DNA from: Turneriella sp.
GTDB lineage: Bacteria > Spirochaetota > Leptospiria > Turneriellales > Turneriellaceae
Assembly: GCA_965279515.1 (NCBI GenBank)
Contig: CBDIID010000003.1
Location: 416,001 to 480,000, forward strand
Length of the DNA stretch: 64,000 bases
Direction: 5' to 3'
A program made the translations under genes and the position numbers. Below, piece by piece: positions 565 through 26,762 of the stretch. The stretch's first letter is position 1. The number at the start of each line of letters is the position of its first letter. The notes under the pieces are model-generated. The model was not told the origin of the DNA. It saw nothing but the letters and a program-made list of their open reading frames with translations, and made no database searches.

Positions 565-632
565 GTGTTCGCTCCCGGACGATCTGGCTATCCGCAATAG
601 GATTTATAGCGTTTTTGGATTCCGCATCCGGT

Positions 633-3600
633 TTAGCGCTTATCCCCGTAACCGAATACGCGCCTTGCTTCTTCCGTAGCCAAATCCAGCCCCTTTATCA
701 GCTCACTGCGTAACGTTGCCGGGTCTTCAAATACCCAGTCCAGGACCCCTGTCGACTTCGCATCCGCCCCGGCAGCTGCTTTCTCGTTGTAACTGCGAAT
801 ATACTCGTTCCTGAAGTTTTCTGCAATTTCTTTGTCGCCAGCCAGCAGCTCGCGGTATCTTCCCTGCTCAAACAGATCGAAGGCAGATTGGGCGCCCATG
901 ACGGCCATGACAGCGCGCCGCAAGGCGATATAGATGATTCCAGGCCGCAAATACTTGCTAAACGCATGAATCTGCCTGCCGCCAAAATTCTGGTTAAGCA
1001 CAACGGACACAACCGGCACGTCCCCCCGGATATTCGTATCCAGCGACAACCCGCCGATTTGCTGAATCCTTGCCCCTTCCTGCTTCTTTCCGGGGACAAA
1101 TCCCGGAGCATTGGAAAGCATGATGATCGGCATTGCATTCTGATTCATGAGTTCGGTAAAAATCCTGAATTTCTCCGTGCCGGCAGCATCCGGAGCTCCG
1201 CCGATAATTGCGGGCTGATCAGCGATGACTCCGACTGTGCGGCCCGCGATACGCGCGAGCCCTGTGAGTAAAGCCGGCCCTGCCACGCGGTCGTTCATGT
1301 TCGCAAAAAATTCGACAAAACTCCCTTTATCGAAAACGGGTTCGAGGACGGCCGTCATCATATCGTAGGGTTCCGCCGGATTTTCCGGAATCATGACCGC
1401 ACCTTCGCCGGAAACGCTGGCGGCTTCACGGGACTTCAGCAAATCCATAATGCGCTCTGCGAGGGCAAAACCTTCCCCGAGTGACGGCACCACATGGGTC
1501 GCGGATTTATTGATGTAACTCCTGGTTTCGTCGCTCATGCCATCAGGTGCGACAACGATCACTGCATCAGCATTCGCTGTCAATCCTGCCTCGTCCAGCC
1601 CATGCGGGTGCGTCAGAATATGTATCCGTACTCCGGATTTTTTCTGCAATAACCGCATGAAATCCAGGCGCGCGCGCAGTACGATACTGTCTTCACTGTT
1701 CATTTCCTGGAACCATCGGGCACCACTCAGGAAAATCTGACTGGCCCCTGTTTTTCGTGCGGTTCGCAGCAGTTCGCACGACTTCGTTACCGCCGACGGC
1801 GATCGGATACCAAAATCGTCTCTCGGCCCCATCAGCAAAATCTTACGCCCGCCGAGTCTTGCAAATCCCCCGACCAGCGAAAATGAGCGGTGGTATTTTT
1901 CCTTAAATTCAAGAAATTCGCCCCGATCAACGAAATCCGGAATATGGACGCCGCAGATTTGCACCGCTGGTTGTGTATCTGGGGGAATTTTATTCATGTT
2001 CTTACCGGGTGTATCCGGTGCGAATATTTCGTGAATCTGGCGGATGACACTCAGCATATGAAGGTTACTCTCTGCGACGATATCGACGGTGCCCGTATAG
2101 AAGCCCATGATCCGGGCTCCTCCCAGATCATAATTTGAAACCTTTTCACCTGTCACCGACTGGATGACCTTGGCCCCCGTCAGTACCCTGTACGACTCGG
2201 GAGAATCCACCATGCACTGAATCGCCGCCTGGCTTGAGCCATATACATCCAATCCCGTCGATGAACCGACCCCGATCGCGACAATAAAAGAGCCTGTTTC
2301 GACCCGGCTGCGATCCAGGGAAAACAACTGATCTAACTCAGCAATCAGTGCGCGAAAGCTGCTATCCGCATGCGCATCGACGCGATTAAAAAAATCGCCA
2401 ACACTTGTCTCTGCGTTGACCAGGGAGTTCAGCATGAACCCCTCCCCGGCCCTGTTCAGCGAGATGACGCCCTCCCGGATATTTGCACCGGCACCGTCAT
2501 TAAAGACATAAAGCGGGACGGATGACATAAAAGCAAGGTAGCAGGCAGCAATGTATTTGAGCCCTTCAAGGTTACCCGTGGCGCCGCCGTTGATGCGCGA
2601 ATCCTTGACGTACAGAAATGCTCTTCTGCCTGAAATAGTGCCGTCAAAAAGACGGCTTCCGACAGGAATTTTTCCGGCTTTCCCTGTTTTGGGATTTTTC
2701 GCCCGTACGTCATCGACGGACGGGATAAATACTTCGCGCATAGTCGTGTGATCGAGGCACTGGCTGGCCCAGAATTCAGCAGGCCATTTGTTACGGGCGT
2801 AGAGCGCCTGACTGGCCGTGTTCGCAGATTCTTCCGAATATGGATACGCCGGATCCTGTTCAGAGAGGAGCGTTAGGTCAACCCCATCCTGGGCGGGGGC
2901 AATGAGCAGGTGCACAACGCCTTCTTCGTTATCGGGCTTTGAAAGATATTTTAAACTAACAATGTTCTTTGCCAACCCATCATCGACAAAAAACGGCACG
3001 ACGCGGTCGACGACACGGCGTATGGTTTCAAGGTTTGGGATTCTGGGATCACGGCCTGTGATTTCCATTTCGATGGCCTTTCCGGTAGCGATGATCTCGA
3101 TCCAGCTGAGCTGGCGTCTCTCCACAGACTGGTAAGCGAGGAAAAGTTTCGCGGCGTCAAAGTTTGTGCGCTCCATATTATCACTGCCGATAGCTCTGCC
3201 ATGCAGATCAGCAACAATTGCAACCTCATCCATCAGCGCAACGCAGAGATAATGTTTCTCGCTTGTATTTTGGATGCTTTGCAGCCCAAAGATCAGGATT
3301 TGGGAATAAGGGGAAAAACAGCGGATTATATTGAATTTTTTGGCCAGCTTCTGTTGACGCTCCCGCAATACTTTCTGAGCCCAGGGCGGGATCTCCTGCG
3401 GGATAAGAGCAAACCGGGATTCGCAGAGCGACGCCGTGATCTCGCGTAACAAATTAATGCGGTCGATCCCCGGAAAAACGGAAAGCGGGTCTTTCACCAT
3501 ATCCCGGTATTCGCGGATATATTGCCTCGGCACAGCGCGTCGCGATCTCGGCTCGTGGGGTGAAATACCCCAATCCTGAAAGGTCTGAAGAGCGAGGTCG

Positions 3601-6476
3601 GCCAGGGAATCATCGCGCTCGACTTCTTCCTGCCTGATGAGGCGACGCAGGATGCGGATCGTGCGTTTAGAAGGTTTTGTCAACAGGCTTAATAACTTAA
3701 CAACGATGCGTACCAGTGGTTGAAAGTTCTGACTCGCATAGTATGCCCTAAGAACCTTAATCAGGATGATTTCAGTGCGGCTGTGATTGATGCCGGATGC
3801 AGGTAACCAGTTCGCTACACCATATGGCCGCAAGAGGCTATCCATGGTGGTTTTGAATGCGGGGGATGGATGGTAAGGGGTGCTTACGCCCTGCTCCCTG
3901 GATATGGAATATGCGAACAATTCACGCAGATCGCGGAAGATCCCCGACGGTTCAGTTTCGCTTGGAGAAAAGACTGCTTTGATATTACAATACTGCGAAA
4001 CAATATCTGCCAGTTTATGCTCGGGAAGAGAAGTTGTATCCAACTTCAGCCGGGAATCCGCGAGATTTGCGAGCGCGACCGAAATTTTACCGATGAGCCT
4101 TTCATTGCCCAGCAGGCCGCGAAAGACGGACGCTACGATTTGCAAAAGGACGGGTAAGTGTGCTTCAGGGTTATCCTGAACCAGGTGTGTGAAGCGCTCT
4201 TCCAGGAGATTCTCCATCGTGCCATCACCCACGACTCTTGGGACATGGTCTTTTGACGCCGCATTGGGTGATTCGGCGAGCGCTTCTTCCGGGTTGATAT
4301 GGACCAATACCTCACCCTCGTCGATTTTTTTGCCGAATATCTGTCCCGAAGAAGAGATCCCTAACTGCAGTTTGGATAAATCTCCGTCTTCTAGTAAGTA
4401 AGTTATTTTGCCGCCGATAGGTGCCGTCAGCGTCGCTTCCATTTTCATCGCGGAGAGGATAAGCAGAGGTTGATCTTTACTGACAAGACTACCGATACGA
4501 AGCGGCTCCCCGAGCGAGTCCTTGTCTGCGCAGAATTTCACGAAGCTACCATGAAAAGGCGCGCGCATCAATCCTAACGGATCAGAACGTTCTTTTCCGT
4601 CCTGTGCATGCAGCCTCAAACGGTGGTAATTGACCTTCCCGTCGGCATCGGGAAAGCGCAGCATCATGTACGTGGGGCGCAAATCCAGGCGAACGTGATA
4701 GGAGCGCGATTCAAAACGGATAAAATAATCATCGGAAGCCGGGATGCGCGAGAGAACTTCAATGTCGCCGTAATACGTATTATTGGCAAAGACACGGACG
4801 TTATCGAGCGTCATCGGCAACAAATGTAAATGGAATTGCAGCTTCCCCGCTTCGGCGACGTACTCCTCAGGCGGCGGATTAAACTCTCCCGAATGCAAAA
4901 TGCCCTCGATATCCCGGGCCAAAAGGACGCTCCGGGCCAATTCACTGTTTTTCTTCAGATTGACGGCTACCGACGCAAACACAGCCGCCTGTAATGCGCT
5001 GGCATCAGAAACACCATACTCTGTAAGCTCTGGATGATCACTCAGCAAATTATTCGTGTAATTAATTTCCTGGAAAAAAGGTGAGCGCAGGATATTCAGT
5101 AATTGCTGGGTATTCGTCGTGACGCCTTTGACGTAAAATTCGCTGAGCGCGCGCTCGAGCCGGATAAGTGCTTCGGTGCGGGTTGCCCCCTTTGCAATGA
5201 TCTTGCCGAGCATCGGATCGAAATCCGGCAGAATACTGTCGCCTTTGCTGAAACCAAAATCGCAGCGGATCGCATTAAATGTGGGTAAATTCAGTTCGAG
5301 GAGAGTACCAGAAACAGGATGATAATTATTTTCAGGATCTTCTGCATAGATGCGTGCTTCAATTGCATGGCTTTTATCGGTAAACCGCTGGCGCAATGCA
5401 TGTTCAAAAGGGATCTCGTCCGTTTTTCCGTCAAATTGCAGAATTTGCCACTTCGCGAGATCGATCCCCAGCGATTGATCTGTCACAGGGTGTTCCACTT
5501 GCAGGCGCGTATTCATTTCGAGAAAGCCCAAAGTATTCGAAACCTGATCATATAGGAACTCGACAGTTCCAGCGCCTGCACCGGCGCCGTAACCGGAAAC
5601 TTGCGCCATTTTTTCCGCAGCAGCGATAATGGAGAGATTCATCTGCGGTGAAAGAAAGATGTCGCCACTTTCCTCGATAATTTTCTGGTTTCGCCGCTGC
5701 ACTGCACATTTCCGGATGCCGATCGCCATACCGTTGAAAATCTGCACCTCCATGTGCACGGCCCTGATGATATACCGTTCCAGGTAAAAAATATCGTCGC
5801 CGTTGATTTGCCGGCCCACGCGCTGACAGGTATCTATCGCAGATGCAAGGCCTGCGCGGCTAAAGACGGGTTCCATGCCCTTGCCTCCGCCCCCGGCGTT
5901 TAACTTGACGATTACCGGATAGCCGATCTTTTCCGCGGCGGCCACCGCTTGCTCAGCATTTTTCAAAGCGCTGCTGCTTTGGAACAAAGGGATGCCATGT
6001 TTCCCGGCCAGCTCTCTCGCATTGAGCTTGTTCCCCACACCTTTCATAATTTGGGCCGAGGGCCCCATGAAAATAACTTCCTGTCCGGTTTTTTTCACAT
6101 ATGCATCGAGCGCATCGACGAAGGCATGATTTTCCGAAAGAAAACCGTATCCCGGAAAGATGGCATTGGCCCTAACCAAGGCGGCAGCAGCGATCACCGT
6201 CGCGATATCCATATAGTTCATGGCGTCGCCGATAAAGAGCGCTTCATCCGCCATCGCATACCAGGATTGCCCAAGATCAGGGTTGGTGACGATTGCGACG
6301 CTCGGAATACCAGCTTCTTTCAGCGAATGGAAAAAACGCTTCGCAATCTCGCCCCGATTAGCGACCAGAACTTTCTGCAGGCGGCCCGCACGTTTATCCG
6401 GCTCTTTAGCCAGATAACGCGGATTGAGTTCATGCAGATAACGGATCGGCGCTTCGAGCAAATCTAAATCGGGCAT
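633..6476 (-). CDS. Single-chain multidomain biotin-dependent acyl-CoA carboxylase (BC + BCCP + central region + carboxyltransferase)
   Basis: BC motifs KVLVANRGEIA, PGYGFLSEN, GGGGKGM, EMNTRLQVEHPVT; biotinyl motif SAMKME; CT motifs DGAGANIREG, TGAKVIQSVTGE, GLARIAGRTVGVIADQP, PGFVPG. Confidence 0.9.
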   Translation of the reverse strand: MPDLDLLEAPIRYLHELNPRYLAKEPDKRAGRLQKVLVANRGEIAKRFFHSLKEAGIPSVAIVTNPDLGQSWYAMADEALFIGDAMNYMDIATVIAAAALVRANAIFPGYGFLSENHAFVDALDAYVKKTGQEVIFMGPSAQIMKGVGNKLNARELAGKHGIPLFQSSSALKNAEQAVAAAEKIGYPVIVKLNAGGGGKGMEPVFSRAGLASAIDTCQRVGRQINGDDIFYLERYIIRAVHMEVQIFNGMAIGIRKCAVQRRNQKIIEESGDIFLSPQMNLSIIAAAEKMAQVSGYGAGAGAGTVEFLYDQVSNTLGFLEMNTRLQVEHPVTDQSLGIDLAKWQILQFDGKTDEIPFEHALRQRFTDKSHAIEARIYAEDPENNYHPVSGTLLELNLPTFNAIRCDFGFSKGDSILPDFDPMLGKIIAKGATRTEALIRLERALSEFYVKGVTTNTQQLLNILRSPFFQEINYTNNLLSDHPELTEYGVSDASALQAAVFASVAVNLKKNSELARSVLLARDIEGILHSGEFNPPPEEYVAEAGKLQFHLHLLPMTLDNVRVFANNTYYGDIEVLSRIPASDDYFIRFESRSYHVRLDLRPTYMMLRFPDADGKVNYHRLRLHAQDGKERSDPLGLMRAPFHGSFVKFCADKDSLGEPLRIGSLVSKDQPLLILSAMKMEATLTAPIGGKITYLLEDGDLSKLQLGISSSGQIFGKKIDEGEVLVHINPEEALAESPNAASKDHVPRVVGDGTMENLLEERFTHLVQDNPEAHLPVLLQIVASVFRGLLGNERLIGKISVALANLADSRLKLDTTSLPEHKLADIVSQYCNIKAVFSPSETEPSGIFRDLRELFAYSISREQGVSTPYHPSPAFKTTMDSLLRPYGVANWLPASGINHSRTEIILIKVLRAYYASQNFQPLVRIVVKLLSLLTKPSKRTIRILRRLIRQEEVERDDSLADLALQTFQDWGISPHEPRSRRAVPRQYIREYRDMVKDPLSVFPGIDRINLLREITASLCESRFALIPQEIPPWAQKVLRERQQKLAKKFNIIRCFSPYSQILIFGLQSIQNTSEKHYLCVALMDEVAIVADLHGRAIGSDNMERTNFDAAKLFLAYQSVERRQLSWIEIIATGKAIEMEITGRDPRIPNLETIRRVVDRVVPFFVDDGLAKNIVSLKYLSKPDNEEGVVHLLIAPAQDGVDLTLLSEQDPAYPYSEESANTASQALYARNKWPAEFWASQCLDHTTMREVFIPSVDDVRAKNPKTGKAGKIPVGSRLFDGTISGRRAFLYVKDSRINGGATGNLEGLKYIAACYLAFMSSVPLYVFNDGAGANIREGVISLNRAGEGFMLNSLVNAETSVGDFFNRVDAHADSSFRALIAELDQLFSLDRSRVETGSFIVAIGVGSSTGLDVYGSSQAAIQCMVDSPESYRVLTGAKVIQSVTGEKVSNYDLGGARIMGFYTGTVDIVAESNLHMLSVIRQIHEIFAPDTPGKNMNKIPPDTQPAVQICGVHIPDFVDRGEFLEFKEKYHRSFSLVGGFARLGGRKILLMGPRDDFGIRSPSAVTKSCELLRTARKTGASQIFLSGARWFQEMNSEDSIVLRARLDFMRLLQKKSGVRIHILTHPHGLDEAGLTANADAVIVVAPDGMSDETRSYINKSATHVVPSLGEGFALAERIMDLLKSREAASVSGEGAVMIPENPAEPYDMMTAVLEPVFDKGSFVEFFANMNDRVAGPALLTGLARIAGRTVGVIADQPAIIGGAPDAAGTEKFRIFTELMNQNAMPIIMLSNAPGFVPGKKQEGARIQQIGGLSLDTNIRGDVPVVSVVLNQNFGGRQIHAFSKYLRPGIIYIALRRAVMAVMGAQSAFDLFEQGRYRELLAGDKEIAENFRNEYIRSYNEKAAAGADAKSTGVLDWVFEDPATLRSELIKGLDLATEEARRVFGYGDKR

Positions 6477-6558
6477 AACACTGATGCAGCTGTCTTACTT
6501 TTAGATACCGAGTAAATAGGTTAACGCCGCGGCACCTAATGCACGCGTCGATGGACGA

Positions 6559-7365
6559 TTATCGCTGCGCCGGGGTAGTTAGTTTTCCGGGATCAAAATG
6601 TACCAGTTCATGCCCTTGTTGCCGTAAATAAGTTACGATTTCGGTTAAATGCTGATACGTCTTTGGCATAATGTCGTGGAATATAAGCACGACAGGTTCA
6701 CCGGCAGGAATTTTGGGGTCCGCAAATATCTGGGTAATCCTTGTCTTAATGTCCTCTATGGAATTCAGCGGCGAGGCATCCCCCACCGTATATCCGGTTA
6801 CTACCTGGTAGCCTAAAAGTTTGGAGCTCGCTGTAACGCCTTCATTCTTAATCAAATGGGGCGGACGAAACAACTTTGGCTTTGGCAACGGCGCGCCTGC
6901 ATGGCTGGCATGCGTTTCCCAGTCGCGAATTTCCTCATGAATCGCCGTATGAGACCAAAACCAGGGCCAGCGCAGCCATGCATGGTGCGCAGTATGGTTA
7001 CCCACAAAATGCCCTTCGGCGAGCACGCGTTTCACCAAATCGGGATATTCCAGCATGCTTCCTTTGTTTGTCCAGATTTCATATGGGGCAAAATACCTCC
7101 GCGCAGCAAGCGCGTCTTTGGGAGCATCGCCGATCATGAAAAAAGCTGCTTTAACCCTCGTACCATCTGCTGTCTTCATCTTTTTCACAGCATCGAGAAC
7201 CAGGTCTGTCTTGCCGGGAACCGGGCCATCATCAAAGGTCAACATGAACATACGGGAATGTCCACGGATCGGTAGCGGTGAATTTGCAGACGCCTGTTGA
7301 GTGGGTATCGGCAATGGATACCATAGCAGAGATAAAAAACCAACCAGCAAAAAATTAACGCGCAA
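6559..7365 (-). CDS. Exported polysaccharide deacetylase (CE4/NodB-like)
   Basis: LTFDDGP, GNHTAHH, LFRPP and LIFHD motifs; hydrophobic N-terminal signal. Confidence 0.88.
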   Translation of the reverse strand: MRVNFLLVGFLSLLWYPLPIPTQQASANSPLPIRGHSRMFMLTFDDGPVPGKTDLVLDAVKKMKTADGTRVKAAFFMIGDAPKDALAARRYFAPYEIWTNKGSMLEYPDLVKRVLAEGHFVGNHTAHHAWLRWPWFWSHTAIHEEIRDWETHASHAGAPLPKPKLFRPPHLIKNEGVTASSKLLGYQVVTGYTVGDASPLNSIEDIKTRITQIFADPKIPAGEPVVLIFHDIMPKTYQHLTEIVTYLRQQGHELVHFDPGKLTTPAQR

Positions 7366-7513
7366 TGGAGCTACTCAGGTTAGGGATTCGGGCAGATATC
7401 TCACAAGGATTTCTCGCGTTGCTTTGCAAAGAGCGCTTTGAGCGCTCAAGAATCACCGCGTCAAGTAATTGTCTTGATTTTTTATTGCCAGCTTATAAGT
7501 ATCCTGGAAAGCA

Positions 7514-8467
7514 ATGGAGTTTTTGAAAAATAATATGAAGAGTGTTCACAATCTGGTCTTTCCCGGCCAAGGATCGCAGCGCCCCGGTATGGGTGCAGAT
7601 TTTTTTGAAAATTTTCCCGGGGCAAAAGCCGTTTTCGAACGCGCCTCAGCAGCGCTTGGGGAAGACCTTGGCGCGATATGTTTCAGTGAAAATGAGAAGC
7701 TCGATCTCACCGAGTATACACAGCCCTGCATCCTGACATGTTCGATAGCCATGCTCGAAACTTTACGAAACGAACTGCCATTAGAAGCGGCGTTTTTTGC
7801 CGGGCACAGTTTGGGCGAATACACCGCACTGGTCGCAGCTGGCGTATTTCAGCTCGAGGATGCCGTTAAAATTGTCCGAAAACGGGGCGCCCTGATGCAG
7901 CGGGCCGTACCGGCTGGCGAGGGAGCTATGGCAGCGCTGATCGCTGAAGACCTGCAAAATCTACCGTACCAGGAACTGGTACTCGCAAGCGGGGCTGAAA
8001 TAGCGAATGTTAATTCTGCCGAGCAGACGGTGATTAGCGGGCAAAAGGTAAATGTCGAGAAAGCGGTGGCGGCACTCGAAGAAAAACTGCCCCAAATTCA
8101 GGTGATTTTCCTGAATGTCAGTGCCCCCTTCCATTCCAGCCTCATGAAGCCAGCCGAATCCGAATTCCGCGAATACATCACGGGCTTTTCACCTTCTATC
8201 AATTTTACGCCTGCCGGCCGCGTCGCTTCCAATGTTTCCGGAACCCTGCACAATGAAAGTACCTTGATCGATAATTTGGTAGCACAGATCGGTGCTCCGG
8301 TGCATTGGCTGGAAAACATGAGACTACTCATTGAAACAAAAAATCCGATCCTGGAAATCGGCCCGAATAAAACTCTCAGCAGATTTTTCGGTGCCGAAGG
8401 CGTTAAAATAAAATCCGTCACGAATTTGCGATCGATGCAGGCGTTCTGCGCCCCCGAGACGGTTTGA
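7514..8467 (+). CDS. fabD: Malonyl-CoA:ACP transacylase
   Basis: FPGQGSQ, GHSLGEY (catalytic Ser), VSAPFHS. Confidence 0.93.
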   Translation: MEFLKNNMKSVHNLVFPGQGSQRPGMGADFFENFPGAKAVFERASAALGEDLGAICFSENEKLDLTEYTQPCILTCSIAMLETLRNELPLEAAFFAGHSLGEYTALVAAGVFQLEDAVKIVRKRGALMQRAVPAGEGAMAALIAEDLQNLPYQELVLASGAEIANVNSAEQTVISGQKVNVEKAVAALEEKLPQIQVIFLNVSAPFHSSLMKPAESEFREYITGFSPSINFTPAGRVASNVSGTLHNESTLIDNLVAQIGAPVHWLENMRLLIETKNPILEIGPNKTLSRFFGAEGVKIKSVTNLRSMQAFCAPETV

Positions 8468-9171
8468 CCAAACCTGGGGACATCCGCCTTATTCCTGTCA
8501 AACTCTGGCAAGAGACGCGACTATTACGCTCTGCCATGGCGATATGCACGGTTGTGAAAAATCCTGAAGCGGGTTTGCTCAGGAGCCATGAAGAGCGGCA
8601 ACTCTTTGCGGACTTTAAAACTCCTAAGCGCAGGCAGGAATTCCTCGCCGGCCGGCAAGCGGCATACCAGGCGATTGCACAACTACTGCCCGCAGGGAGT
8701 TCATTGCCTGCGGTAATACCAGGGATTATGGGACAACCAACACTTGTCGGGTCAGAAAATCTCGAACTTAGTATTACCCATACATTTCCCTGCGCTATCG
8801 CTTTTGCCTGCGAACCGGGATTTCCGCTTACCATTGACCTGGAACGCACCGACGGTAGCCGTCAAGCCGCATTGGCCGAGGTACTCACTGACTCCGAGAA
8901 GTCACTTTTCCCTGAACACGCCATTGCATTTAGTGCAAAGGAAGCCATGGGGAAATTTTTGCGCTGTGGTTTTCAGGCCAGCTGGCAGATCTTTGAAATT
9001 TCAGGTTGTACGAAAATTGACGAAGGATACGAAATTACTTTTGCACATTTTTCAGGGATTCGCGTGATCTCCCATCGCATCGGCAACTTTGTTCTCAGCC
9101 TCGCCCTCCCGGGCGAAATGAACGTCAATACGGATCTTCAACTCTTAGCTCAAACGCTTGAAAATCAGTGA
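8464..9171 (+). CDS. 4'-phosphopantetheinyl transferase (Sfp/EntD-like)
   Basis: RRQEFLAGR, SITH, IDLE, FSAKEA motifs; TTG start overlaps the fabD stop. Confidence 0.85.
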   Translation: MTKPGDIRLIPVKLWQETRLLRSAMAICTVVKNPEAGLLRSHEERQLFADFKTPKRRQEFLAGRQAAYQAIAQLLPAGSSLPAVIPGIMGQPTLVGSENLELSITHTFPCAIAFACEPGFPLTIDLERTDGSRQAALAEVLTDSEKSLFPEHAIAFSAKEAMGKFLRCGFQASWQIFEISGCTKIDEGYEITFAHFSGIRVISHRIGNFVLSLALPGEMNVNTDLQLLAQTLENQ

Positions 9172-10371: not shown

Positions 10372-10372
10372 G

Positions 10373-17534: not shown

Positions 17535-17949
17535 CACCCTGAATCCCGAATTTCTCGAGAACGCTTTTCGGCGTTTCAAAACACATTTCGAGCGTATCCA
17601 TTTGCACGGCGACCTGAACTGTGTGGCCGCGGCAAATGCGCTCATTTTTTTCAACACTTTCGATCAGATATTCAATCCATAAACGGTTGGTCAGTTCCCT
17701 GAGGCTCGCCGTCACGCGCACCTGCATCCCATAAAAAAGCGGCTTGATGTATTTGCAGCGGCTTTCGATGACAGGCCAGCCATAATTCGACTCTTTCATC
17801 GCGTCAATATCGTAATTGTACTTTTGCATAAGCGCGGTGCGGGCAAGTTCAAAGTATTTCAGGTAGTGCCCGTGCCAGACAATGCCAACCATATCCACAT
17901 CGTGGAACGGAATGGTGATAGTGACATCGGCGGAGATTTTTCCTGGCAT
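17521..17949 (-). CDS. Acyl-CoA/ACP thioesterase, 4HBT family (ApeK-like)
   Basis: PFHDVDMVGIVWHGHYLKYFELAR. Confidence 0.88.
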   Translation of the reverse strand: MPGKISADVTITIPFHDVDMVGIVWHGHYLKYFELARTALMQKYNYDIDAMKESNYGWPVIESRCKYIKPLFYGMQVRVTASLRELTNRLWIEYLIESVEKNERICRGHTVQVAVQMDTLEMCFETPKSVLEKFGIQGDEDL

Positions 17950-17952
17950 ATG

Positions 17953-19479
17953 CTATCCAAATTCCAGTGCAAGCTCCTGGTTCTGAATCCACCGGGTCAA
18001 TTCTTCCAGCTCCCCATCGAGCTCTCTGTCCTCGGTGACGAACTTAAAGCGGGAACGCAGGCTGTGAATCATGTCCTGCACGGGCCGGGACAGCTTTGGT
18101 GTCTGCGAATCCCCGATGCGCAGTGTCACTGCCTGAATCGTAGCCAGAAGCAAAGCCGCAGCAACCTGTTCGGTCAGCTGCAATACGCGCAGGCAATCGC
18201 GGGCGCTTATACTCCCCATACTTACCTTATCCTGGTTATGGCATTCCGTAGACCGGGAAAAAACACTCGCTGGCATCGTCAGTTTCAAAGCTTCGGCAGT
18301 CCACGAAGAGACGGCGATCTGCACTGCTTTGAAGCCGTGGTTAATCTGCCGCCGCTCACCCGTCGCTCCTGAGAGATTTGCGGGCAAGCCGTTGCTGAAT
18401 TTTGTATCTACGAGTAAGGCCAGCTGTCTGTCCATCAGGTCGGCGAGATTGGCAACCAGCGTTTTCATCGAATCCGCTGCAAACCCGATATGCCCGCCAT
18501 AAAAATGCCCGCCATGCAATACCTTCTTCTGTGCGGCGTCGATGATGGGATTGTCGTTGGCGCTGTTGAGTTCAATGCTGATGAACTGTCTCAGCCACGG
18601 CAGCGAATCGGCGAGGACGCCGATAATATGGGGTGCGCAGCGTATGGAGTATCGATCCTGAAGACGGTGGCCACCCGCCATTCCCGTAAGGTCGGTGCGG
18701 ATCAGCCGGGCAATTTCATTCTGCCCGGGATGCGGTTTTACCTGGAAAAGCTCATCGGCAAAATGGTCAGGATTTCCATCGAGGGCAATAACTGCCAGCG
18801 ATGTAATGCGGGCGCACAGCTTCGCGAGGTATTCGGCACGCCTGAATGCCAGTATTGTCTGGGCCGTCATCACCGCGGTGCCATTCATGAGCGCGAGCGC
18901 TTCTTTAGGCTTGAGCACCACCGCCTCCAGGCCTGCTTTTTGCAACGCTGCCGCTGCGCCAAACTCTCCGCCGTCCATGTAAACTTTTCTCTCGCCCGTC
19001 AAGGCCGCGGCGATATATGACAGGGGTGTGAGATCCCCGCTTGCTCCCACGGATCCCTCTTCAGGAATAACCGGAATAATATTGTGGTTTAGAAATTCGA
19101 CCAGGAGCTGAAGGATCTCCAACCGAACCCCGGAATGCCCGCGCGCCAGGGAACACAGCCTGACGAGTAAAATAGCCTTCGCAATCGGCGGCTCAATTTT
19201 TCTTCCGAGACCGACACCATGAAACCGCACCAGGTGTTTCGGCAGCTCTGCCACAAGATCAGCAGAGACGCCGCTCGAAACCGAATCCCCAAAACCGGTA
19301 GTTACGCCATAGACCACTTCGTGATTATCTACCAGCGCCTGAAGAAAATCAGCCCCTGCCTGGATTTTGCCCAACCAGGATGCGTTGTCCGAAAGCTGAA
19401 CCTGCCTGCCCGAGAAGACGACGCTGCAGACATCTTCAATACTAAGATTTTCTAAGCCGACTTCCAGGAAATCATTCAT
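17953..19479 (-). CDS. MIO-dependent aromatic amino acid ammonia-lyase (HAL/PAL/TAL family)
   Basis: VYGVTTGFG, GSVGASGDL (ASG MIO triad), KEALALMNGT, QDRYSIRC, NQDKVSMG. Confidence 0.92.
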   Translation of the reverse strand: MNDFLEVGLENLSIEDVCSVVFSGRQVQLSDNASWLGKIQAGADFLQALVDNHEVVYGVTTGFGDSVSSGVSADLVAELPKHLVRFHGVGLGRKIEPPIAKAILLVRLCSLARGHSGVRLEILQLLVEFLNHNIIPVIPEEGSVGASGDLTPLSYIAAALTGERKVYMDGGEFGAAAALQKAGLEAVVLKPKEALALMNGTAVMTAQTILAFRRAEYLAKLCARITSLAVIALDGNPDHFADELFQVKPHPGQNEIARLIRTDLTGMAGGHRLQDRYSIRCAPHIIGVLADSLPWLRQFISIELNSANDNPIIDAAQKKVLHGGHFYGGHIGFAADSMKTLVANLADLMDRQLALLVDTKFSNGLPANLSGATGERRQINHGFKAVQIAVSSWTAEALKLTMPASVFSRSTECHNQDKVSMGSISARDCLRVLQLTEQVAAALLLATIQAVTLRIGDSQTPKLSRPVQDMIHSLRSRFKFVTEDRELDGELEELTRWIQNQELALEFG

Positions 19480-21160
19480 GCGGATGTTTCCCTGAGCCTT
19501 TCCAGAAATCAAAAAAATTAAACCATTGGTATGGATAGGCAAGCGCATATTTTTCAAGGCGCCTGGCGAATTCCCGGGTTGCTGCCTCGATGGTCCTGGC
19601 GCGTTCTTTTCTCGGCGATTTCAATGTCTTGGCCAGCTTTTCAAAATAAATTTCATAGATGGAATCGTTTCTCAGGCAAAACATTGTATATACAGGGCAT
19701 TCAAGCAGACTGGCTAGCACAAAGGGCCCCTGGGGGAATGGAGCTTTCTGCCCCAAAAAATCCACATCACTGACGCGTAAAATTGAACCGACACTGGTTC
19801 GGTCAGACAGCGCTACAACCAGTTCACCCTCAGCTATCTTATTCTGCAGGTAAATAATGGTATCCGGCATCATCTCTTCGGCCTGGATTAACTCCAGCGT
19901 CACATTCGGGTTAATCTTACGCAGCAGGCTGTTAAAATTGGCCGCATGCCGGGTCACGACCAGCACATTCAATTTAACTTCCGGGACATCTGCGGCCAAT
20001 GCTCTTAGCATTTCGAGGTTACCGAGGTGCGCCCCGAGAATGACGCCGCCGCTCTTGCTCTTGGCGAGATTTACGAAATCCTGGCGGTTGGGCCAATGGA
20101 TGTGTCCGTGATGGAGCTTTCCCATCCAGGCTGAGATCTTATCGAGGGAACTCCGCCCGAATTCCAGAAAATGTGCAAAGCTCTGGAGCAATCCTGGTTT
20201 TTTGGTAAGCGCGCCACCCCGCTCACGGTATTCATAGACACGTGCAAGAAAAAAGCGCGATGCATTTCTGGCCTCCCGGCCGGTAATGAAAAAATATATT
20301 ATAACGGGATACAAAATCAGGAAAAATACCGGCCGCCCGAAAACCCTGTAGATAAAAACCAGAAAACGGATGCCCAGGGAAGATCCCCGCTCGTCCATCG
20401 TCGACCAATGTTGTGGTTTCTGTTGGCGGAACTTACGCCACAGCAGCGCCGGCAGGCGCAGCAACATGGCAAAAAATAAACGCGTATGCGCGCGCGAAAT
20501 CAGGAGATTATCCTGCAAAGCCCTGAAATGCGACGTGCCGCCCTTAGGATAGATTACCTGGGTCGGCAAAGGGATCATCTGCACACCCTTCCAGTACAGC
20601 CGCACGAGAATCTCGATATCAAAATCCATACGGTCACCCAGCTTGCGGCCTTCCAACAAAGGCATGATCTCTTTAAGGCGATACAGACGAAATCCGCACA
20701 TCGCGTCTTTTATGTGAAATGAAAGCGTTTCAACCCACACCCAGAATCTGGTGACGTAGCGACCATACAGCCTGCTTTTCGGGATGGAAGCATCGAATAC
20801 CGGTTCCCCGACGACCATAGCATCCGGGTTCTGTTTTAACGTCTCCAGAAATCGTGCGATGTCCCGTGAATCGTGCTGGCCGTCGGCATCGATTTGCAGC
20901 ACATGCGTATAACCAGCTTTAAATGCCGCCCTGAACCCGTCTTTTACTGCGGCACCTTTGCCGCCATTTGCCGGGCGATGCACAATAGTGACCCATTTTT
21001 CGCGTTTAGCAATCTTGCTGAGAGCCTCGACCGTCACATCATTGCTTCCGTCGTTGACGACAATACAGGGGAGGTTGAACGATTTTATCGCGGCAATTGT
21101 ATGGAAGATCTCGTTCGTATGATTGTAGATCGGAATCACAATGCAAAGTTTCTGATTCAT
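19472..21160 (-). CDS. Fused GT2 glycosyltransferase / LpxL-like acyltransferase (ApeJ-like)
   Basis: N-terminal VIPIYN, NDGS, DADGQH; C-terminal GAHLGNLE, PYQWFNFFDFW. Confidence 0.88.
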   Translation of the reverse strand: MNQKLCIVIPIYNHTNEIFHTIAAIKSFNLPCIVVNDGSNDVTVEALSKIAKREKWVTIVHRPANGGKGAAVKDGFRAAFKAGYTHVLQIDADGQHDSRDIARFLETLKQNPDAMVVGEPVFDASIPKSRLYGRYVTRFWVWVETLSFHIKDAMCGFRLYRLKEIMPLLEGRKLGDRMDFDIEILVRLYWKGVQMIPLPTQVIYPKGGTSHFRALQDNLLISRAHTRLFFAMLLRLPALLWRKFRQQKPQHWSTMDERGSSLGIRFLVFIYRVFGRPVFFLILYPVIIYFFITGREARNASRFFLARVYEYRERGGALTKKPGLLQSFAHFLEFGRSSLDKISAWMGKLHHGHIHWPNRQDFVNLAKSKSGGVILGAHLGNLEMLRALAADVPEVKLNVLVVTRHAANFNSLLRKINPNVTLELIQAEEMMPDTIIYLQNKIAEGELVVALSDRTSVGSILRVSDVDFLGQKAPFPQGPFVLASLLECPVYTMFCLRNDSIYEIYFEKLAKTLKSPRKERARTIEAATREFARRLEKYALAYPYQWFNFFDFWKGSGKHPHE

Positions 21161-22890
21161 TGGAAAATTATCGCGCCCCCTGAATATTTTACGTTTTCAG
21201 AAGAATACTGAAAGCCTAAGCGCTTCCCGGCCGGCTCATACGTAAGCTCAAGCTCAAGAAGCTGCGCCGGGTAAATGACTCTCTGGAATTTCAATCCCTT
21301 TACGCGGCGGACTGGCTCAGCAATCATAAAATACTGCGATGCAAATTGCACAGCCCAGTTTATCTGAACGATGCCGGGTAAAACCGGCAGGTCGGGAAAA
21401 TGGCCTTCAAAATAACCGAGATCGCGCGGCACGCGTAACTGTGCTGCAATATGGAGATCATCACGGGTCAGTGAAATGACATGCGGTTGCAGAACCTCGC
21501 CGCTGAAGACCGGCTTAAACCATGTTTTCAGCGCAACCGCATTCCGCTTTCCCTGGCTATTCAATTCAATCTTATCTACATAACGCCACTTTTTGGGTAA
21601 AACCACAGCGTCGAGATAACCGGACAGAAAATCCCGGATTTTCTCATTCATGCCCTTCGCGCCGATACGATCCAGCTCCAGTTTTCCTTCAGTGGATAAC
21701 ACCACGGCACAAACAATCTGGCGGCGTTTTAAGTTAACGCTGTCAATCACCAGGGCCGCGCAATCTTCGATTAAAGGCAACTTGCAGACCAGTTGTTCAA
21801 TTTCAAGCAGCGAGACCCGCTTTTCCTGAATCTTTACCACTGAATCTGCGCGCCCCAAAAGCTCAAAGCTGCGGGACTCCCCAAGGCGGACGAGATCGTC
21901 GGTTCTATGCCAGTCAGTGGTCGTAAGGTAGGGCGATTTGATGAGTAAGCGCCCTGAATCATCCTGGGAAATTTCAATCTTCGAAAACGGTTGCCAACTT
22001 CCATCAATAGCCGGACTCCTGAAGGCAATGCCACCGGTCTCCGTTGACCCGTACACCTCTGCCAGAATGTGTGGTTCGCCCCCGCCGATGAATGCGGCGG
22101 TGCTCTTATCAAGCACACCGCCCGATGAAAAAACGCGGGAGAAAAACCGGCTAAGTGCCCTGAGCCGATCTTCGGGCAATGCCCGCAGAAATGCCGGCGA
22201 AGAAACCAATATGGCTTTTCCACCTCCATCTGATGGCGGAGAAAACTCTTCCGGGTAGCGAATGATTTGGCGGCGAAAAGCTCTTCCCGCTGCTAATGGC
22301 CAAAGCACCGAAAACAACAAGCCATAAATGTGTTGGTGATGCACGGTTGAAACAACCGGGGATGCCCCCAGAAACCCGCCCCAGTTGTTTTCCAATTCCG
22401 CAATTTCCGTCTCCAGCTGGCCCAGGGTTTTAAGGACGCGCTTGGGTTCACCTTCAGACCCGGATGTAAAAAGTTCTATTCCGCATTTTGCGGCATTAAG
22501 TACGGAAAATTTTCCGACTGGCCCTGCCTGGCCCGGCCAGCTTTGAACCGGAATATGCGAGAGTTTTGTTTCATTGGAAAAATCGCTGATTATGGCGTCT
22601 GCATACTTCTCCATACCCATCAGGGTGTTGCGTTGCTTATTCGGAGGTAAAAGAATTATTTTCCCTGCATGGCATAACGCAAAAAAACACACGGAAAATG
22701 TATATGCATCGTCGCAAGAAAGCACCCAGCGCTGGGCGGTTTGTCGCTCCAGCACCTGCGATAACTTCCAGACTTCTGATTTAAACCCGCTCCAACGGAC
22801 AGCTTCCTGCTCATCGAAGGCCACGACAGATTCGTCAGCTTCCCGCTCAGCCAGCATCCGGCTCAGCAATTGAAAATGTGAGTTTTTCAT
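21157..22890 (-). CDS. Acyl-ACP/CoA synthetase fused to a C-terminal hotdog dehydratase (ApeH-ApeI fusion)
   Basis: FTSGSEGEPK, HIYGLLF, YGSTETGG, GRAD; C-terminal YFEGHFPDLPVLPGIVQ. Confidence 0.85.
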   Translation of the reverse strand: MKNSHFQLLSRMLAEREADESVVAFDEQEAVRWSGFKSEVWKLSQVLERQTAQRWVLSCDDAYTFSVCFFALCHAGKIILLPPNKQRNTLMGMEKYADAIISDFSNETKLSHIPVQSWPGQAGPVGKFSVLNAAKCGIELFTSGSEGEPKRVLKTLGQLETEIAELENNWGGFLGASPVVSTVHHQHIYGLLFSVLWPLAAGRAFRRQIIRYPEEFSPPSDGGGKAILVSSPAFLRALPEDRLRALSRFFSRVFSSGGVLDKSTAAFIGGGEPHILAEVYGSTETGGIAFRSPAIDGSWQPFSKIEISQDDSGRLLIKSPYLTTTDWHRTDDLVRLGESRSFELLGRADSVVKIQEKRVSLLEIEQLVCKLPLIEDCAALVIDSVNLKRRQIVCAVVLSTEGKLELDRIGAKGMNEKIRDFLSGYLDAVVLPKKWRYVDKIELNSQGKRNAVALKTWFKPVFSGEVLQPHVISLTRDDLHIAAQLRVPRDLGYFEGHFPDLPVLPGIVQINWAVQFASQYFMIAEPVRRVKGLKFQRVIYPAQLLELELTYEPAGKRLGFQYSSENVKYSGGAIIFQ

Positions 22891-22901
22891 CCTGGTAAAT
22901 G

Positions 22902-23471
22902 TTAGTTGGCTGCCGGTCTCTTAGGGCGGACGGCAAACTCAACCGCAAATATTAATCCCATAAAAATATAACTGATGAACCCGTTGTAGAGCGTCCAGAT
23001 CTCCAGCGATGTAAAAAAGACTGTGTATAGGGCCACCAGGCCGTTCATAACAAAAAAAGCCATCCAGACTTTTGTGACCTTTCGCGTATACCTCTGGCCG
23101 CTCTCCGGTAAATCCGGATAACTCAGCCTTGCAATCCGCTCAATCATCGACGGCGGCCTGAGCAGCGTGTAAAAGAAAAGCCCTAAAAGAGTGACGTTAA
23201 TCAATACGGGAATTGCTCTCAGGTAAAGCGGATCATTCGAAATCAAGGTTAAGACGACGATCACCAAAACAGCTAAAAAGACCGGAACAAGCTGTTGCAG
23301 ATTTTTTTTCCGCAGCGAGAGCGTCAGCAACAGACGCAAGGCGAAAACCGCGAGAATCATGAGGCCGACAGATTTAGGCTGCAATGTCTTCAAACCGAAA
23401 TAAACAGCAGGGGGATACGCGACAATCGTAATACCAATGAGAATAGTCAACGCTGTGCGCAGCAGGCGCAC
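22902..23471 (-). CDS. Membrane protein (ApeG/COG4648-like)
   Basis: Multiple TM helices; PSMIERIARL, YTRKVTKVW, WTLYNGFISY. Confidence 0.8.
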   Translation of the reverse strand: MRLLRTALTILIGITIVAYPPAVYFGLKTLQPKSVGLMILAVFALRLLLTLSLRKKNLQQLVPVFLAVLVIVVLTLISNDPLYLRAIPVLINVTLLGLFFYTLLRPPSMIERIARLSYPDLPESGQRYTRKVTKVWMAFFVMNGLVALYTVFFTSLEIWTLYNGFISYIFMGLIFAVEFAVRPKRPAAN

Positions 23472-23474
23472 GAT

Positions 23475-23738
23475 TTAAAGTCCGTGTATGACTTTATACG
23501 CAGCTTCAACCATGTCGTCAACGGTTCTGACGGTCTTAAAGTCTTCGGGCTTTACTTTCTTTCCGGTTTTTTTCTGCAGAAAGATTAACACATCCACGGC
23601 ATCGATACTGTCCAGATCAAGATCATTGTAGATATGGGCAGCCGGTACGACATGTTTTGCATTTAGTTCGAAACGATCGACCAGCAAATTTTTTATTTCC
23701 TGAAATAATTCGTCTTTGGAGGCAATTTCTGCATTCAT
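23475..23738 (-). CDS. Acyl carrier protein (ApeF-like)
   Basis: DLDLDSIDAVD phosphopantetheine site; FKTVRTV. Confidence 0.9.
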   Translation of the reverse strand: MNAEIASKDELFQEIKNLLVDRFELNAKHVVPAAHIYNDLDLDSIDAVDVLIFLQKKTGKKVKPEDFKTVRTVDDMVEAAYKVIHGL

Positions 23739-24019
23739 ACGTGGCTCGGTTCCTGATGAGACTTTTGCTGGCTTTCAATGAACAAAACCAGACTCTTGAC
23801 AGAGGCAAAGTGCTCTTTGTTTTCCTTCGATTTTGCGTTTATTTTAATATTATATTTTTTTGAAATGCGCAGGCCAAGCTCAAGGGCGTCGACGGAATCG
23901 AGCCCGAGGCCTTTACCGAAAAGCGGCGCTTCGCTGTCGATATCGGCGGGCTTGACATCTTCGAGATCGAGTGCACTGACGATAAGTTCTTTCAATTCCA
24001 GATCAAGCTTTTGATTCAT
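23735..24019 (-). CDS. Acyl carrier protein (ApeE-like)
   Basis: PLFGKGLGLDSVDALELG. Confidence 0.9.
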   Translation of the reverse strand: MNQKLDLELKELIVSALDLEDVKPADIDSEAPLFGKGLGLDSVDALELGLRISKKYNIKINAKSKENKEHFASVKSLVLFIESQQKSHQEPSHV

Positions 24020-24788
24020 ATTCTTCCTGAGCTTTTAAAAAATAAGCTTCGAAATACTCGGTAAGGCGACGCGGCCCATTGTCACTATATTGTAAAAATG
24101 CATCTACCTGAAAAGCATCTTTCACAATGACAGTCAGCGTCGCCGGCACCTCGGGAACCTGATACCATTTTTTATCTTTCGTCAGCGTCGATGGCCGCAT
24201 GTCGATGAAAATCGGCTGTACCTTCCGCGAACTCAGTAAGGCAATGCGGGCAGCCCCGCGCTGAAAATGCCGGGGTTTGCCTGGCGTTGTTCTCGTTCCT
24301 TCGGGAAAGAGAATCAGATTATTCCCGGCCTGTATGCGCGCAGCGCACTCGTCTATCAGCGAATGGGGATCATCACTTTTAATGAATCCTGCGGCCCGCA
24401 CAACTCCACCCCAAAAGAAATGGTGGTACGCTCCTGGTTTAACAATACAATCTGCCGTTCGCAGAACTGACATGATGGCAACGACGTCGATCAGTGATGG
24501 ATGGTTCGCTATAATTAACTGGCCTTTGGCCGAGCGCAACTTCTCCCGGCCGATAATTCTAACGCGCATGGCACCCACGCAGCGCATGAATGTTATGAAA
24601 AACTTAAAGGCGATATGCAGATTATACTGAATCAGTTTTTTGCGCCGTTCTTTTCCGATCGGAAGAATCCGGTAAAGAGGGAAAACAAAGAAAAACAACA
24701 CCAGGGCTCCGGAACCAAAGACAAGGAACGATAAACCTGTGCCGCCCACGCGCACCCAGTACGCAAGGGATTTAAGCATTTTTCTCAA
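24003..24788 (-). CDS. PlsC-like lysophospholipid acyltransferase (ApeD-like)
   Basis: ANHPSLID (HX4D) and FPEGTRT. Confidence 0.9.
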   Translation of the reverse strand: MRKMLKSLAYWVRVGGTGLSFLVFGSGALVLFFFVFPLYRILPIGKERRKKLIQYNLHIAFKFFITFMRCVGAMRVRIIGREKLRSAKGQLIIANHPSLIDVVAIMSVLRTADCIVKPGAYHHFFWGGVVRAAGFIKSDDPHSLIDECAARIQAGNNLILFPEGTRTTPGKPRHFQRGAARIALLSSRKVQPIFIDMRPSTLTKDKKWYQVPEVPATLTVIVKDAFQVDAFLQYSDNGPRRLTEYFEAYFLKAQEEYESKA

Positions 24789-25488
24789 ACTGACACCGTA
24801 GCCGGTTGCTGCCTACAGAAATTTGGCGGTCTGAAGAAAGCAACCAGCGCACAAATCCAATTATATCGTTGTTCTCAGGGTATGTCTTTTTCTCAGGGGA
24901 AATCCGCGCGCTGACCTGCATGCCGGAATCTTTACTGATGAGCAGTGCCAATGCCAAATCGACGGCGTCGGGCGAATCAAAGCCTTGATATTCTTCCGGT
25001 AATATGCGGTCGGCGAAAATGAGAAGCACCTCGGGGTAATCCTCATCGAGAAACCCCAGCGCTTCGACGAGGCCGGCAACGAAAGTATCCTCACCGGCAG
25101 CCACGGCGGTCGAAGGCGCAGTGCTGCCCGTGAACATCGAATAAAGCCCGATGCCTGCATTATGCACCGACAAACCAAAAGACATCGGAGATATTTCTTC
25201 ACCTGCGTTTACAAGGTGAAGGAGCTCCACGGCGCGGTGAATTTCTCCGTGCCGTGAAGCCAGTACAGTACGCACGTCTCTCTGCGGAGCGCATTGCTGC
25301 CCCGCAGCAAATAATAACCGGGTCAGAGTGCTCATCCGCCGCCTCATGTTTGCCGGCACGAAACCGACATCTGGCTCTGCCGGATCGCTTGAGAGCGTGA
25401 CTTCACCCCTGCCCCACTTTGTCCATTCATCTCTGGAGGTTAGGCCCGGGGCGATGGCCGCCCATTCCTGAATATAAAAATCAAACAA
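24772..25488 (-). CDS. Ketosynthase chain-length factor (ApeC-like)
   Basis: PANMRRRMS, ASRHGE, SPMSFGLSVHNA; KS N-terminal-like with no catalytic Cys. Confidence 0.85.
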   Translation of the reverse strand: MFDFYIQEWAAIAPGLTSRDEWTKWGRGEVTLSSDPAEPDVGFVPANMRRRMSTLTRLLFAAGQQCAPQRDVRTVLASRHGEIHRAVELLHLVNAGEEISPMSFGLSVHNAGIGLYSMFTGSTAPSTAVAAGEDTFVAGLVEALGFLDEDYPEVLLIFADRILPEEYQGFDSPDAVDLALALLISKDSGMQVSARISPEKKTYPENNDIIGFVRWLLSSDRQISVGSNRLRCQFEKNA

Positions 25489-25517
25489 TCAGATTACCGC
25501 GCCGGTAAAGGCAAACG

Positions 25518-25904
25518 TCACTGGCAACGTCGAATATCGTTAAACAACTTGTCTTCGATCCACGTAAAGTACTTACGGTGGATGTGTTCGCCGTCATACT
25601 TCATGTCGGCGCTGTCGACATAGTCAACGGTAATACCATCCCTTAAGACATTAAATTGTACGCGAACCATGTGTGAACGAACTCTCAGCTCGCCGATATG
25701 TACATCCGGAGACTGTTGCGTCAGCGACCAACCTTCGCTTTTAGTGATCGCTTTTTTTAAACATTCCGTCAGCTTCGCGGGGGTGCTTTCTGCGGGTAGC
25801 GGTGCCCTATAAACCATCTGCCGCATCGGCTTCGTCGTAAAACTACTACAAGCAGAAACCAGCAGAACACAACACATCAGTACATTTCTCATATTACCAG
25901 CCAT
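25518..25904 (-). CDS. Small lipoprotein of unknown function at the head of the ape operon
   Basis: Lipobox LVSAC; IHRKYFTWI C-terminal motif; GGAG Shine-Dalgarno upstream. Confidence 0.65.
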   Translation of the reverse strand: MAGNMRNVLMCCVLLVSACSSFTTKPMRQMVYRAPLPAESTPAKLTECLKKAITKSEGWSLTQQSPDVHIGELRVRSHMVRVQFNVLRDGITVDYVDSADMKYDGEHIHRKYFTWIEDKLFNDIRRCQ

Positions 25905-26122
25905 TTATTATCTCCTGTTATAAGCATTGCGCTTCGGGTGCCTAAAATTGACGTCCACTATGAAATGTGAAGCAGTAACGTAAATTTTATTCCACGTCAA
26001 TGCCTGAGATTTTGAAAAAACGGATGGCAGCTGATTCGTTTTTCTGCTTGTCGTCTAAGCGCATTTGAGATTGGTAGCCGGTTCAAAGCCTTTTGGCATC
26101 ACATCATTTCGAAGGAGATCTA

Positions 26123-26722: not shown

Positions 26723-26729
26723 CTCGTAA

Positions 26730-26761
26730 TTCATAACCGCCTCTTTGGAGGCGGTTATGAA
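26730..26761. terminator. Perfect 14-bp hairpin between convergent genes (likely bidirectional terminator)
   Basis: TTCATAACCGCCTC-TTTG-GAGGCGGTTATGAA. Confidence 0.75.
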
Positions 26762-26762
26762 A

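Follow-up and report, generated by a model that had tools for sequence, protein, structure and literature searches.

An inserted island in a Turneriella-like spirochaete likely joins an aryl polyene-type cluster to a candidate malonyl-supply cassette

Introduction

The closest well-described relative of the locus examined here is the aryl polyene (APE) cluster of E. coli (apeA-R), and of its 18 genes, as set out in Table 1 of PMC8253772, 17 have counterparts in the same order in our locus. A phosphopantetheinyl transferase (PPTase) gene, acpT, lies directly behind apeR in the E. coli locus that we fetched. A second comparator is the Pseudoalteromonas/Shewanella-type cluster (NZ_CP133570.1), which keeps the same order from the chain length factor (CLF) to the last ketosynthase (KS), shares an ammonia-lyase (57%) and a flavoprotein (42%) with our locus, and also lacks a methyltransferase, but has no carboxylase, FabD or PPTase within the 29.5 kb examined. 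Lyase-bearing clusters have been linked to a V. fischeri subfamily (PMC5851621), and the literature covered gives no product for the type with both lyase and flavoprotein.

For the carboxylase of the locus, the described systems nearest in layout are SACE_4237, an actinobacterial homodimeric multidomain acetyl-CoA carboxylase (ACC), and the eukaryotic ACCs (5csl, 5i6f), which are, as here, single chains of ~200 kDa with the order BC-BCCP-central-CT; PMC6491548 places the SACE_4237-type CT in a clade with eukaryotic ACC. Other bacterial single chains are a carboxylase for long-chain acyl-CoAs, with 1093 aa (4rcn), which is weakly similar to ours (E 1.7e-12), and Shewanella AccS, of ~170 kDa, whose domains are arranged differently from those of the eukaryotic enzymes (PMC11602165); no chain named AccS was among the sequence or profile matches of our enzyme. 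In the open literature, subscription papers aside, neither this carboxylase family nor the occurrence of aryl polyenes in Leptospira was the subject of any paper that we found.

Here we analyse a 64,000-nucleotide stretch of a Turneriella sp. contig (the window), in which a self-sufficient, portable aryl polyene-type cluster had been proposed from the sequence. We consider it likely, with a probability of about 0.7, that a 26-kb insertion, in a spirochaete without accA or another FabD, joins a horizontally acquired aryl polyene-type cluster and a spirochaete carboxylase-FabD-PPTase cassette predicted to supply malonyl-ACP. The ape part is of a known kind; the new variants are its pairing, in a genus that is auxotrophic, with genes for malonyl supply, the build of the carboxylase and its proposed class-wide role.

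Results

Gene content of the island

Open reading frames and family scans found every predicted gene present, intact and in the proposed order, with the following assignments.

598..26762, no strand: whole insertion, bounded by a conserved gene ending near 597 and an Fe-alcohol dehydrogenase gene (26763)
633..6476, minus: single-chain biotin-dependent carboxylase, 1947 aa (Pfam BC, BCCP and CT; motifs; models; fold and profile searches)
6559..7365, minus: polysaccharide deacetylase with an N-terminal signal-like stretch (PF01522)
7514..8467, plus: FabD (malonyl-CoA:ACP transacylase), GHSxG at 97 (family scans, motif, tree)
8464..9171, plus: divergent PPTase (4PPT_N and ACPS, both slightly below curated cut-offs; one homolog cluster at 49%)
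9145..10389, minus: ApeR-type KS (NF006587, 711 bits; 60% to E. coli, 64% to Pseudoalteromonas)
10373..11113, minus: ApeQ ketoreductase, FabG2 (family scan and E. coli match)
11110..11598, minus: ApeP dehydratase (PF22817)
11582..12775, minus: ApeO KS (NF006618 and E. coli match)
12776..13360, minus: ApeN, DUF3261 (Pfam only)
13345..14688, minus: FAD-dependent, halogenase-like enzyme with GxGxxG and WxWxIP motifs (Pseudoalteromonas counterpart); true start probably downstream of 14688
14558..16933, minus: ApeM, MMPL/RND transporter (Pfam and E. coli match)
16887..17657, minus: ApeL, LolA-like (Pfam and E. coli match)
17521..17949, minus: ApeK thioesterase (Pfam and E. coli match)
17953..19557, minus: aromatic amino acid ammonia-lyase, ASG motif intact (Pfam, alignment)
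19472..21160, minus: ApeJ glycosyltransferase-acyltransferase (Pfam and E. coli match)
21157..22890, minus: ApeH (acyl-ACP synthetase) fused to ApeI (dehydratase) (Pfam; ApeH matches its E. coli counterpart at 32% over 453 aa)
22902..23471, minus: ApeG membrane protein (44% over 97 aa to E. coli)
23475..23738, minus: ApeF acyl carrier protein (ACP) (Pfam and E. coli match)
23735..24019, minus: ApeE ACP (Pfam and E. coli match)
24003..24788, minus: ApeD acyltransferase (Pfam and E. coli match)
24772..25488, minus: ApeC CLF (PF13723 and E. coli match)
25518..25904, minus: ApeA-like lipoprotein (pairwise match of 23% over 75 aa, with E 4e-6, to the gene that opens the E. coli ape locus)
26093..26722, plus: 209-aa ORF with three paralogous matches in the genome (ORF list, genome search)

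As proposed, the ape operon is on the minus strand, where it starts at 25488, or at 25904 if the ApeA-like lipoprotein is included, and ends at 9145. After that lipoprotein come the CLF, acyltransferase, two ACPs, membrane protein, fused synthetase-dehydratase, glycosyltransferase-acyltransferase, lyase, thioesterase, LolA, MMPL, flavoprotein, DUF3261, KS, dehydratase, ketoreductase and KS. The idea of one contiguous operon abutted by fabD, a PPTase gene and a carboxylase gene, however, needs correction on two points, although all three genes are there. fabD and the PPTase gene lie on the plus strand and converge on the ape operon, overlapping its last KS by 27 nt, and the deacetylase gene separates fabD from the carboxylase gene; the deacetylase and carboxylase genes, both on the minus strand, diverge from fabD across a 148-bp spacer, giving three transcription units rather than one. 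A promoter and terminator scan of 6300-9400 stayed at chance level. The deacetylase was also considered as a close relative of those in flexirubin-like clusters, and this was rejected on account of its weak likeness.

All parts expected of an aryl polyene cluster were found: the ApeO and ApeR KSs, ApeC, a ketoreductase, dehydratases and two ACPs, the starter-loading synthetase ApeH, and the attachment and export genes ApeD, J, L, M and N. No ape frame is broken, and the KS cysteines and ACP serines are in place. The head-group methyltransferase ApeB, which belongs to the E. coli subtype only, is absent by Pfam and by comparison with the E. coli locus. The island further differs from that locus in its fused apeH-apeI, its extra lyase and flavoprotein, and its own FabD and carboxylase. 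A dedicated PPTase, which had been seen as special to this island, is less so given acpT in E. coli; the island enzyme is encoded on the opposite strand, does not match AcpT and is not its ortholog.

The lyase has Phe at the position aligned with a Phe of cyanobacterial PAL, which we take to indicate phenylalanine as substrate and a cinnamate starter, and the two flavoprotein motifs are presumably of the halogenase type. The predicted product is an unmethylated, perhaps halogenated, aryl polyene lipid.

The insertion and its site

Congener DNA matches the window up to ~564 and again from ~26,770. Both flank genes are present in nine of the ten congener loci fetched, where they lie 12-55 bp apart in three of the nine and 0.45-6.1 kb apart in the other six, compared with 26 kb here. 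Thus the proposal of an inserted island holds, the block being absent from the syntenic site in relatives, but the insertion is longer than had been thought, reaching ~26,760 and taking in the 209-aa ORF. Among congeners, the site takes various inserts.

No integrase or transposase was found among the 29 ORFs scanned, nor convincing terminal repeats at the insertion, and we found no mobility genes for the island. Codon usage in the island is mildly atypical: the 15 island genes scored all fall in the 5th-30th percentile, and three flank genes at 34-59. Short groundwater contigs (four runs, one other study), mostly 99% alike, match the carboxylase, deacetylase, fabD, PPTase and ape genes; one spans carboxylase and deacetylase, and among those listed none spans cassette and ape. 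The block is a real, intact mosaic island, an insertion of ~26 kb.

Malonyl supply in the host

The host had been taken for a spirochaete and indeed belongs to the Leptospirae, being Turneriella-like. Its genome is 99.99% complete and answers the question, raised with the original prediction, of whether accA or fabD occurs elsewhere: accA is absent, and the only PF00698 transferase is the window FabD. The one other CT is a stand-alone beta subunit, and a separate BC is also present. With neither accA nor a second FabD, the island is the only predicted source of malonyl-ACP. We looked in 13 further genomes from the genus, which are 77-99% complete, and found full-length carboxylase, FabD and ApeR in none. 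Independence from the host, as originally claimed, is nevertheless partial, since birA and bioFDAB are encoded elsewhere in the host genome, which also has two other PPTases; two other ACPs were found as well.

A resident SAT-type acyltransferase is conserved in five of five congeners; since these have it but no carboxylase, its substrates are probably acyl chains taken up from outside. Together with the separate BC and CT pair it could provide some malonyl-ACP.

The cassette might instead mainly serve the whole cell, through some de novo fatty-acid synthesis or by feeding a second KS-CLF cluster, with its place beside ape incidental. The genome does have AcpP, a FabG, genes resembling FabH and FabZ, and several KSs, and the second cluster (C3:2.71-2.73 Mb) has no FabD or ACC of its own; its KS has no ortholog that we could find in five congeners (best 29%, in one). 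This second cluster may draw on the same malonyl supply and could even be its main consumer. We nonetheless regard a mainly cell-wide role as unlikely, in that no ortholog was found for the order's enoyl reductase or housekeeping KS, the FabZ-like genes occur only in the two clusters, and the cassette runs straight into the ape operon, overlapping its end.

Origins of the ape genes and the cassette

ApeR occurs in 2 of 190 genomes of the class. Its best matches are one at 93% and the rest at 64-69%, the named ones mostly from Shewanella; the nearest named relatives are from Shewanella and Marinicella (65-68%). The ape genes are thus closest to gammaproteobacterial ones and were likely acquired horizontally. 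Nearly all titled loci among 77 of the carboxylase family, on the other hand, are from Spirochaetota. In a FastTree phylogeny of the CT (68 rows), the window carboxylase groups with three metagenome proteins, to which it is 80, 61 and 56% identical, then with a Leptonema-like clade (95), and not with the enzymes from the host's taxonomic family. By path length, the window FabD is nearest to Leptospirae FAS-II FabDs, in a tree with weak deep support. We found no member of the carboxylase family in viral contigs, and on plasmids none covering 80% of the CT. Of 16 plasmid matches to the ApeA-like lipoprotein, the context of one was checked, and it lies outside an ape cluster.

For the carboxylase, FabD and PPTase alike, a nearest relative (61%, 69% and 48% identical, respectively) is recorded in ENA on a contig 45,286 bp long. 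A contig of 43,748 bp also carries nearest relatives. Going by the equal size of the contigs only, we infer that the three sit on one contig, and the carboxylase-FabD-PPTase trio then likely travels together. No contig of this length turned up among the best 120 ApeR matches, a hint that these relatives have some other cluster as their partner. Taken by sequence, the island is likely a mosaic of a proteobacterial-type ape cluster and a spirochaete carboxylase-FabD-PPTase cassette.

If the host had instead inherited the carboxylase and FabD vertically, as what remains of the fatty-acid module of its order, and all other sampled congeners had lost them, the ape genes would simply have inserted beside them. 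Twelve other genomes of 34 in the order have both genes, two of them in the host's family, and the window FabD is 44-55% identical to these order FabDs. But both genes lie inside the insertion, the CT tree places the carboxylase away from the enzymes of these two genomes of the host's family, the PPTase is unlike the AcpS of the order's module, and the rest of the order's operon was not found in the genome beyond generic matches; a remnant is accordingly improbable.

The carboxylase family in the Leptospirae

A single carboxylase sequence returned no matches as a genome-scan query, and an alignment of the CT region was used with success. The family is present in 65 of 190 class genomes and an acyl transferase in 78, including all 65. 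Of the 125 genomes without the carboxylase, 112 also lack the acyl transferase, and in the other 13 the transferase is present with no carboxylase match at the cut-off used; this co-occurrence is a phylogenetic profile over related, non-independent genomes and carries no statistic. accA was found in none of the 190.

Of 76 genome loci, 20 have a type I synthase next to the carboxylase gene, 13 have birA together with KS or GT genes, 8 have a FAS-II operon, 5 a stand-alone SAT and another 5 only birA; the remaining 25 have no recognised neighbour. One type I protein that we checked is a 3311-aa FAS-I of the fungal/mycobacterial type, followed by AcpS, and the FAS-II operon comprises fabD, an enoyl reductase-like SDR, (fabA), fabG, fabZ, a KS, an acyltransferase and acpS. 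Biotin genes (birA, bio) are also among the neighbours. Because it adjoins FAS-II, FAS-I and biotin genes, the family is likely the acetyl-CoA carboxylase of the class Leptospirae; occurrence profile and neighbours make a strong, though indirect, case for this function. A profile comparison further puts Ile at the position of PccB Asp422 in the window CT, which we presume speaks for acetyl-CoA carboxylase function. Propionyl-CoA may also be a substrate, the CT being PCC-beta-like by sequence. That the carboxylase actually prefers propionyl-CoA or longer acyl-CoAs, and that the cluster is silent or has as its product an aromatic lipid that is branched or not a polyene, would fit this likeness, the missing ApeB and the lack of a product for the lyase-plus-flavoprotein type in the literature covered, but is very improbable given a family that adjoins FAS-I and FAS-II and tracks acyl transferases (65/65), and ape frames that are all intact with their KS cysteines and ACP serines.

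Build of the carboxylase

The chain consists of BC (33-479), BCCP (AMKM at 676), a shortened central domain of eukaryote type (~761-1210) and a CT region of three crotonase domains (~1217-1485, 1500-1685 and 1686-1939). AlphaFold modelled residues 761-1939 with pLDDT 86 and pTM 0.86, and residues 761-1210 with pLDDT 90. For the central domain, all Foldseek matches listed at E up to 0.001 were eukaryotic ACCs, and it aligned with 5i6f (Z 13.0, rmsd 2.8, 167 aligned) and 5cs0 (Z 9.9, rmsd 4.1, 114 aligned). In the model, the central part seems to be a helical part plus one alpha/beta domain, most like eukaryotic ACC.

In the CT region, a sequence search gave 53 PDB sequences at E up to 10, with PCC-beta types best and the profile in agreement; no eukaryotic (yeast, human) ACC CT matched at E up to 10 among the PDB sequences. 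PCC beta, AccB and AccD5-6 are its nearest relatives by both sequence and fold. PCC beta-type CTs are separate two-domain subunits that form hexamers, whereas the window CT is part of a longer chain and includes one more domain, which is less conserved. Taken together, CT domains 2 and 3 can be laid over an entire beta subunit with Z 27-28 and an rmsd of ~3 across ~420 residues. Across 70 sequences, invariant columns number 43, 0 and 31 in CT domains 1, 2 and 3, and domain 2, with none, is likely structural. A sequence shuffle test of the likeness of the middle crotonase domain, itself weak, gave 3/200 against the C domain and 137/200 against the N domain. One hypothesis is that the active site is built by CT domains 1 and 3 of a single chain.

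The enzyme therefore shares with SACE_4237 and eukaryotic ACC the single-chain BC-BCCP-central-CT order, a central domain of the ACC fold and a place beside fatty-acid synthesis. It differs in a central domain that is shortened and seems to have one alpha/beta domain, in the three crotonase domains of its CT, and in the PCC-beta matches of that CT, which by sequence and profile searches does not appear to belong to the eukaryotic ACC clade; SACE_4237 was compared by description only. The predicted protein thus resembles a one-piece ACC without having the CT that marks that family.

Discussion

From these genes and host gaps, the biochemical steps would run as follows. The carboxylase, biotinylated by host BirA, would convert acetyl-CoA from fatty-acid breakdown to malonyl-CoA; the PPTase would activate ApeE/F, and FabD would load malonyl. 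The lyase would make a cinnamate-type starter, probably from phenylalanine, to be loaded by ApeH. ApeO/C, R, Q and P/I would then extend the starter to an unmethylated, possibly halogenated aryl polyene, which ApeD/J would attach to lipid and ApeL/M/N would export to the outer membrane.

On this reading, the locus is a clear example from nature of how a host can retain a foreign biosynthetic cluster although it lacks the pathway to the precursor, since the genes for that precursor came to lie in one insertion with the cluster. The lack of accA in 190 Leptospirae genomes and the tracking of fatty-acid synthases by the carboxylase family offer a candidate answer to the source of malonyl-CoA in these spirochaetes, and the family would mark the lineages that are able to synthesise fatty acids. 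The hybrid build of the enzyme bears on the origin of one-piece ACCs, and a single-gene bacterial ACC could help to raise malonyl-CoA in production strains. More speculatively, and we hold this only as a tentative proposal, the hybrid family would be a previously undescribed one and the acetyl-CoA carboxylase of the Leptospirae, with domain 2 in the place of the normal N domain and domains 1 and 3 active in one chain, possibly as a monomer, and the cassette with FabD and PPTase would be a mobile malonyl plug-in that lets fatty-acid auxotrophs run foreign polyketide clusters.

The original prediction went further, in expecting ape and supply genes to recur as a portable unit and the relatives of the cassette to be linked to ape genes. 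Neither expectation was borne out in the loci and genomes searched. We examined 128 carboxylase-family loci, a set with some redundancy and some short members, and ape-specific neighbours occur at none of them, and the relatives of the carboxylase and FabD are usually found with, and serve, resident fatty-acid synthesis. In the other ApeR genome of the class, carboxylase, fabD and ape lie on three separate contigs. In a phylum sample of 401 genomes, an ApeR-type KS is present in 33, the carboxylase in 55 and both in four, of which only the Turneriella genome has carboxylase and ApeR together, the other three having them on different contigs. Ten other KS-positive genomes have no carboxylase or fabD around the KS, and in five of five KS-positive genomes tested fabD is elsewhere in the genome. 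In favour of the original prediction, another carboxylase subclade is found with birA inside or beside flexirubin-like clusters, at about four independent loci, and these clusters carry a fused KS-CLF, MMPL, LolA and a lyase.

Genomic settings of the single-chain carboxylase and of ape-like clusters

The single-chain carboxylase was present in all 20 sampled genomes of the genus of Leptospira sarikeiensis. In L. sarikeiensis itself, a single operon (L040:3099-19391) comprises FAS-I (3311 aa, of the fungal/mycobacterial type), AcpS and the carboxylase, as do operons at the related loci L097, L105, L107 and L113. Five genomes each carry two carboxylases and two FAS-I-sized frames.

Elsewhere in Spirochaetota (loci L070, L081, L083, L090 and L142), birA and a carboxylase of this family lie in or adjoin flexirubin-like clusters, which encode a fused KS-CLF of ~720 aa, a deacetylase-methyltransferase fusion, MMPL, LolA and BioY. 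Shorter family members, whose central region is missing some 250 residues, are found directly upstream of bioBFDA:

L017:7849-13125, carboxylase, ~1760 aa
L038:7019-12310, carboxylase, ~1760 aa

Ape-like clusters, frequently split, occur in genus g125 and in a single spirochaete outside it (L180-L191); the genomes carrying them have fabD at another place and lack the single-chain carboxylase.

Right-hand edge of the insertion

window 26729-26762, perfect GC-rich hairpin

This hairpin at the right border has no second copy in the genome and is probably a terminator between converging genes.

Other acyltransferase and KS genes of the host

G000:C3:3155399-3156544 (L202:5399-6544), stand-alone SAT-type acyltransferase
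G000:C3:2.712-2.727 Mb (L200), second type II cluster
G000:C3:1424539-1425891, KS gene
G000:C3:3236426-3237682, KS gene
G000:C3:3447367-3448596, KS gene

The acyltransferase, a candidate for turning imported acyl-CoA into acyl-ACP, has counterparts in all five congeners compared (88-93% identity), and in Leptonema-like genomes the carboxylase gene is directly preceded by relatives of it. The second type II cluster contains ACP, KS, CLF-like, FabZ-like and SDR genes together with genes for a fatty acid hydroxylase family member, a nitroreductase, two radical SAM enzymes, an aminotransferase and an acyltransferase; FabD is absent from it, and no ortholog of its KS was found in five congeners. 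Each of the three KS genes listed last is followed by a gene for a membrane protein of ~650-670 aa.
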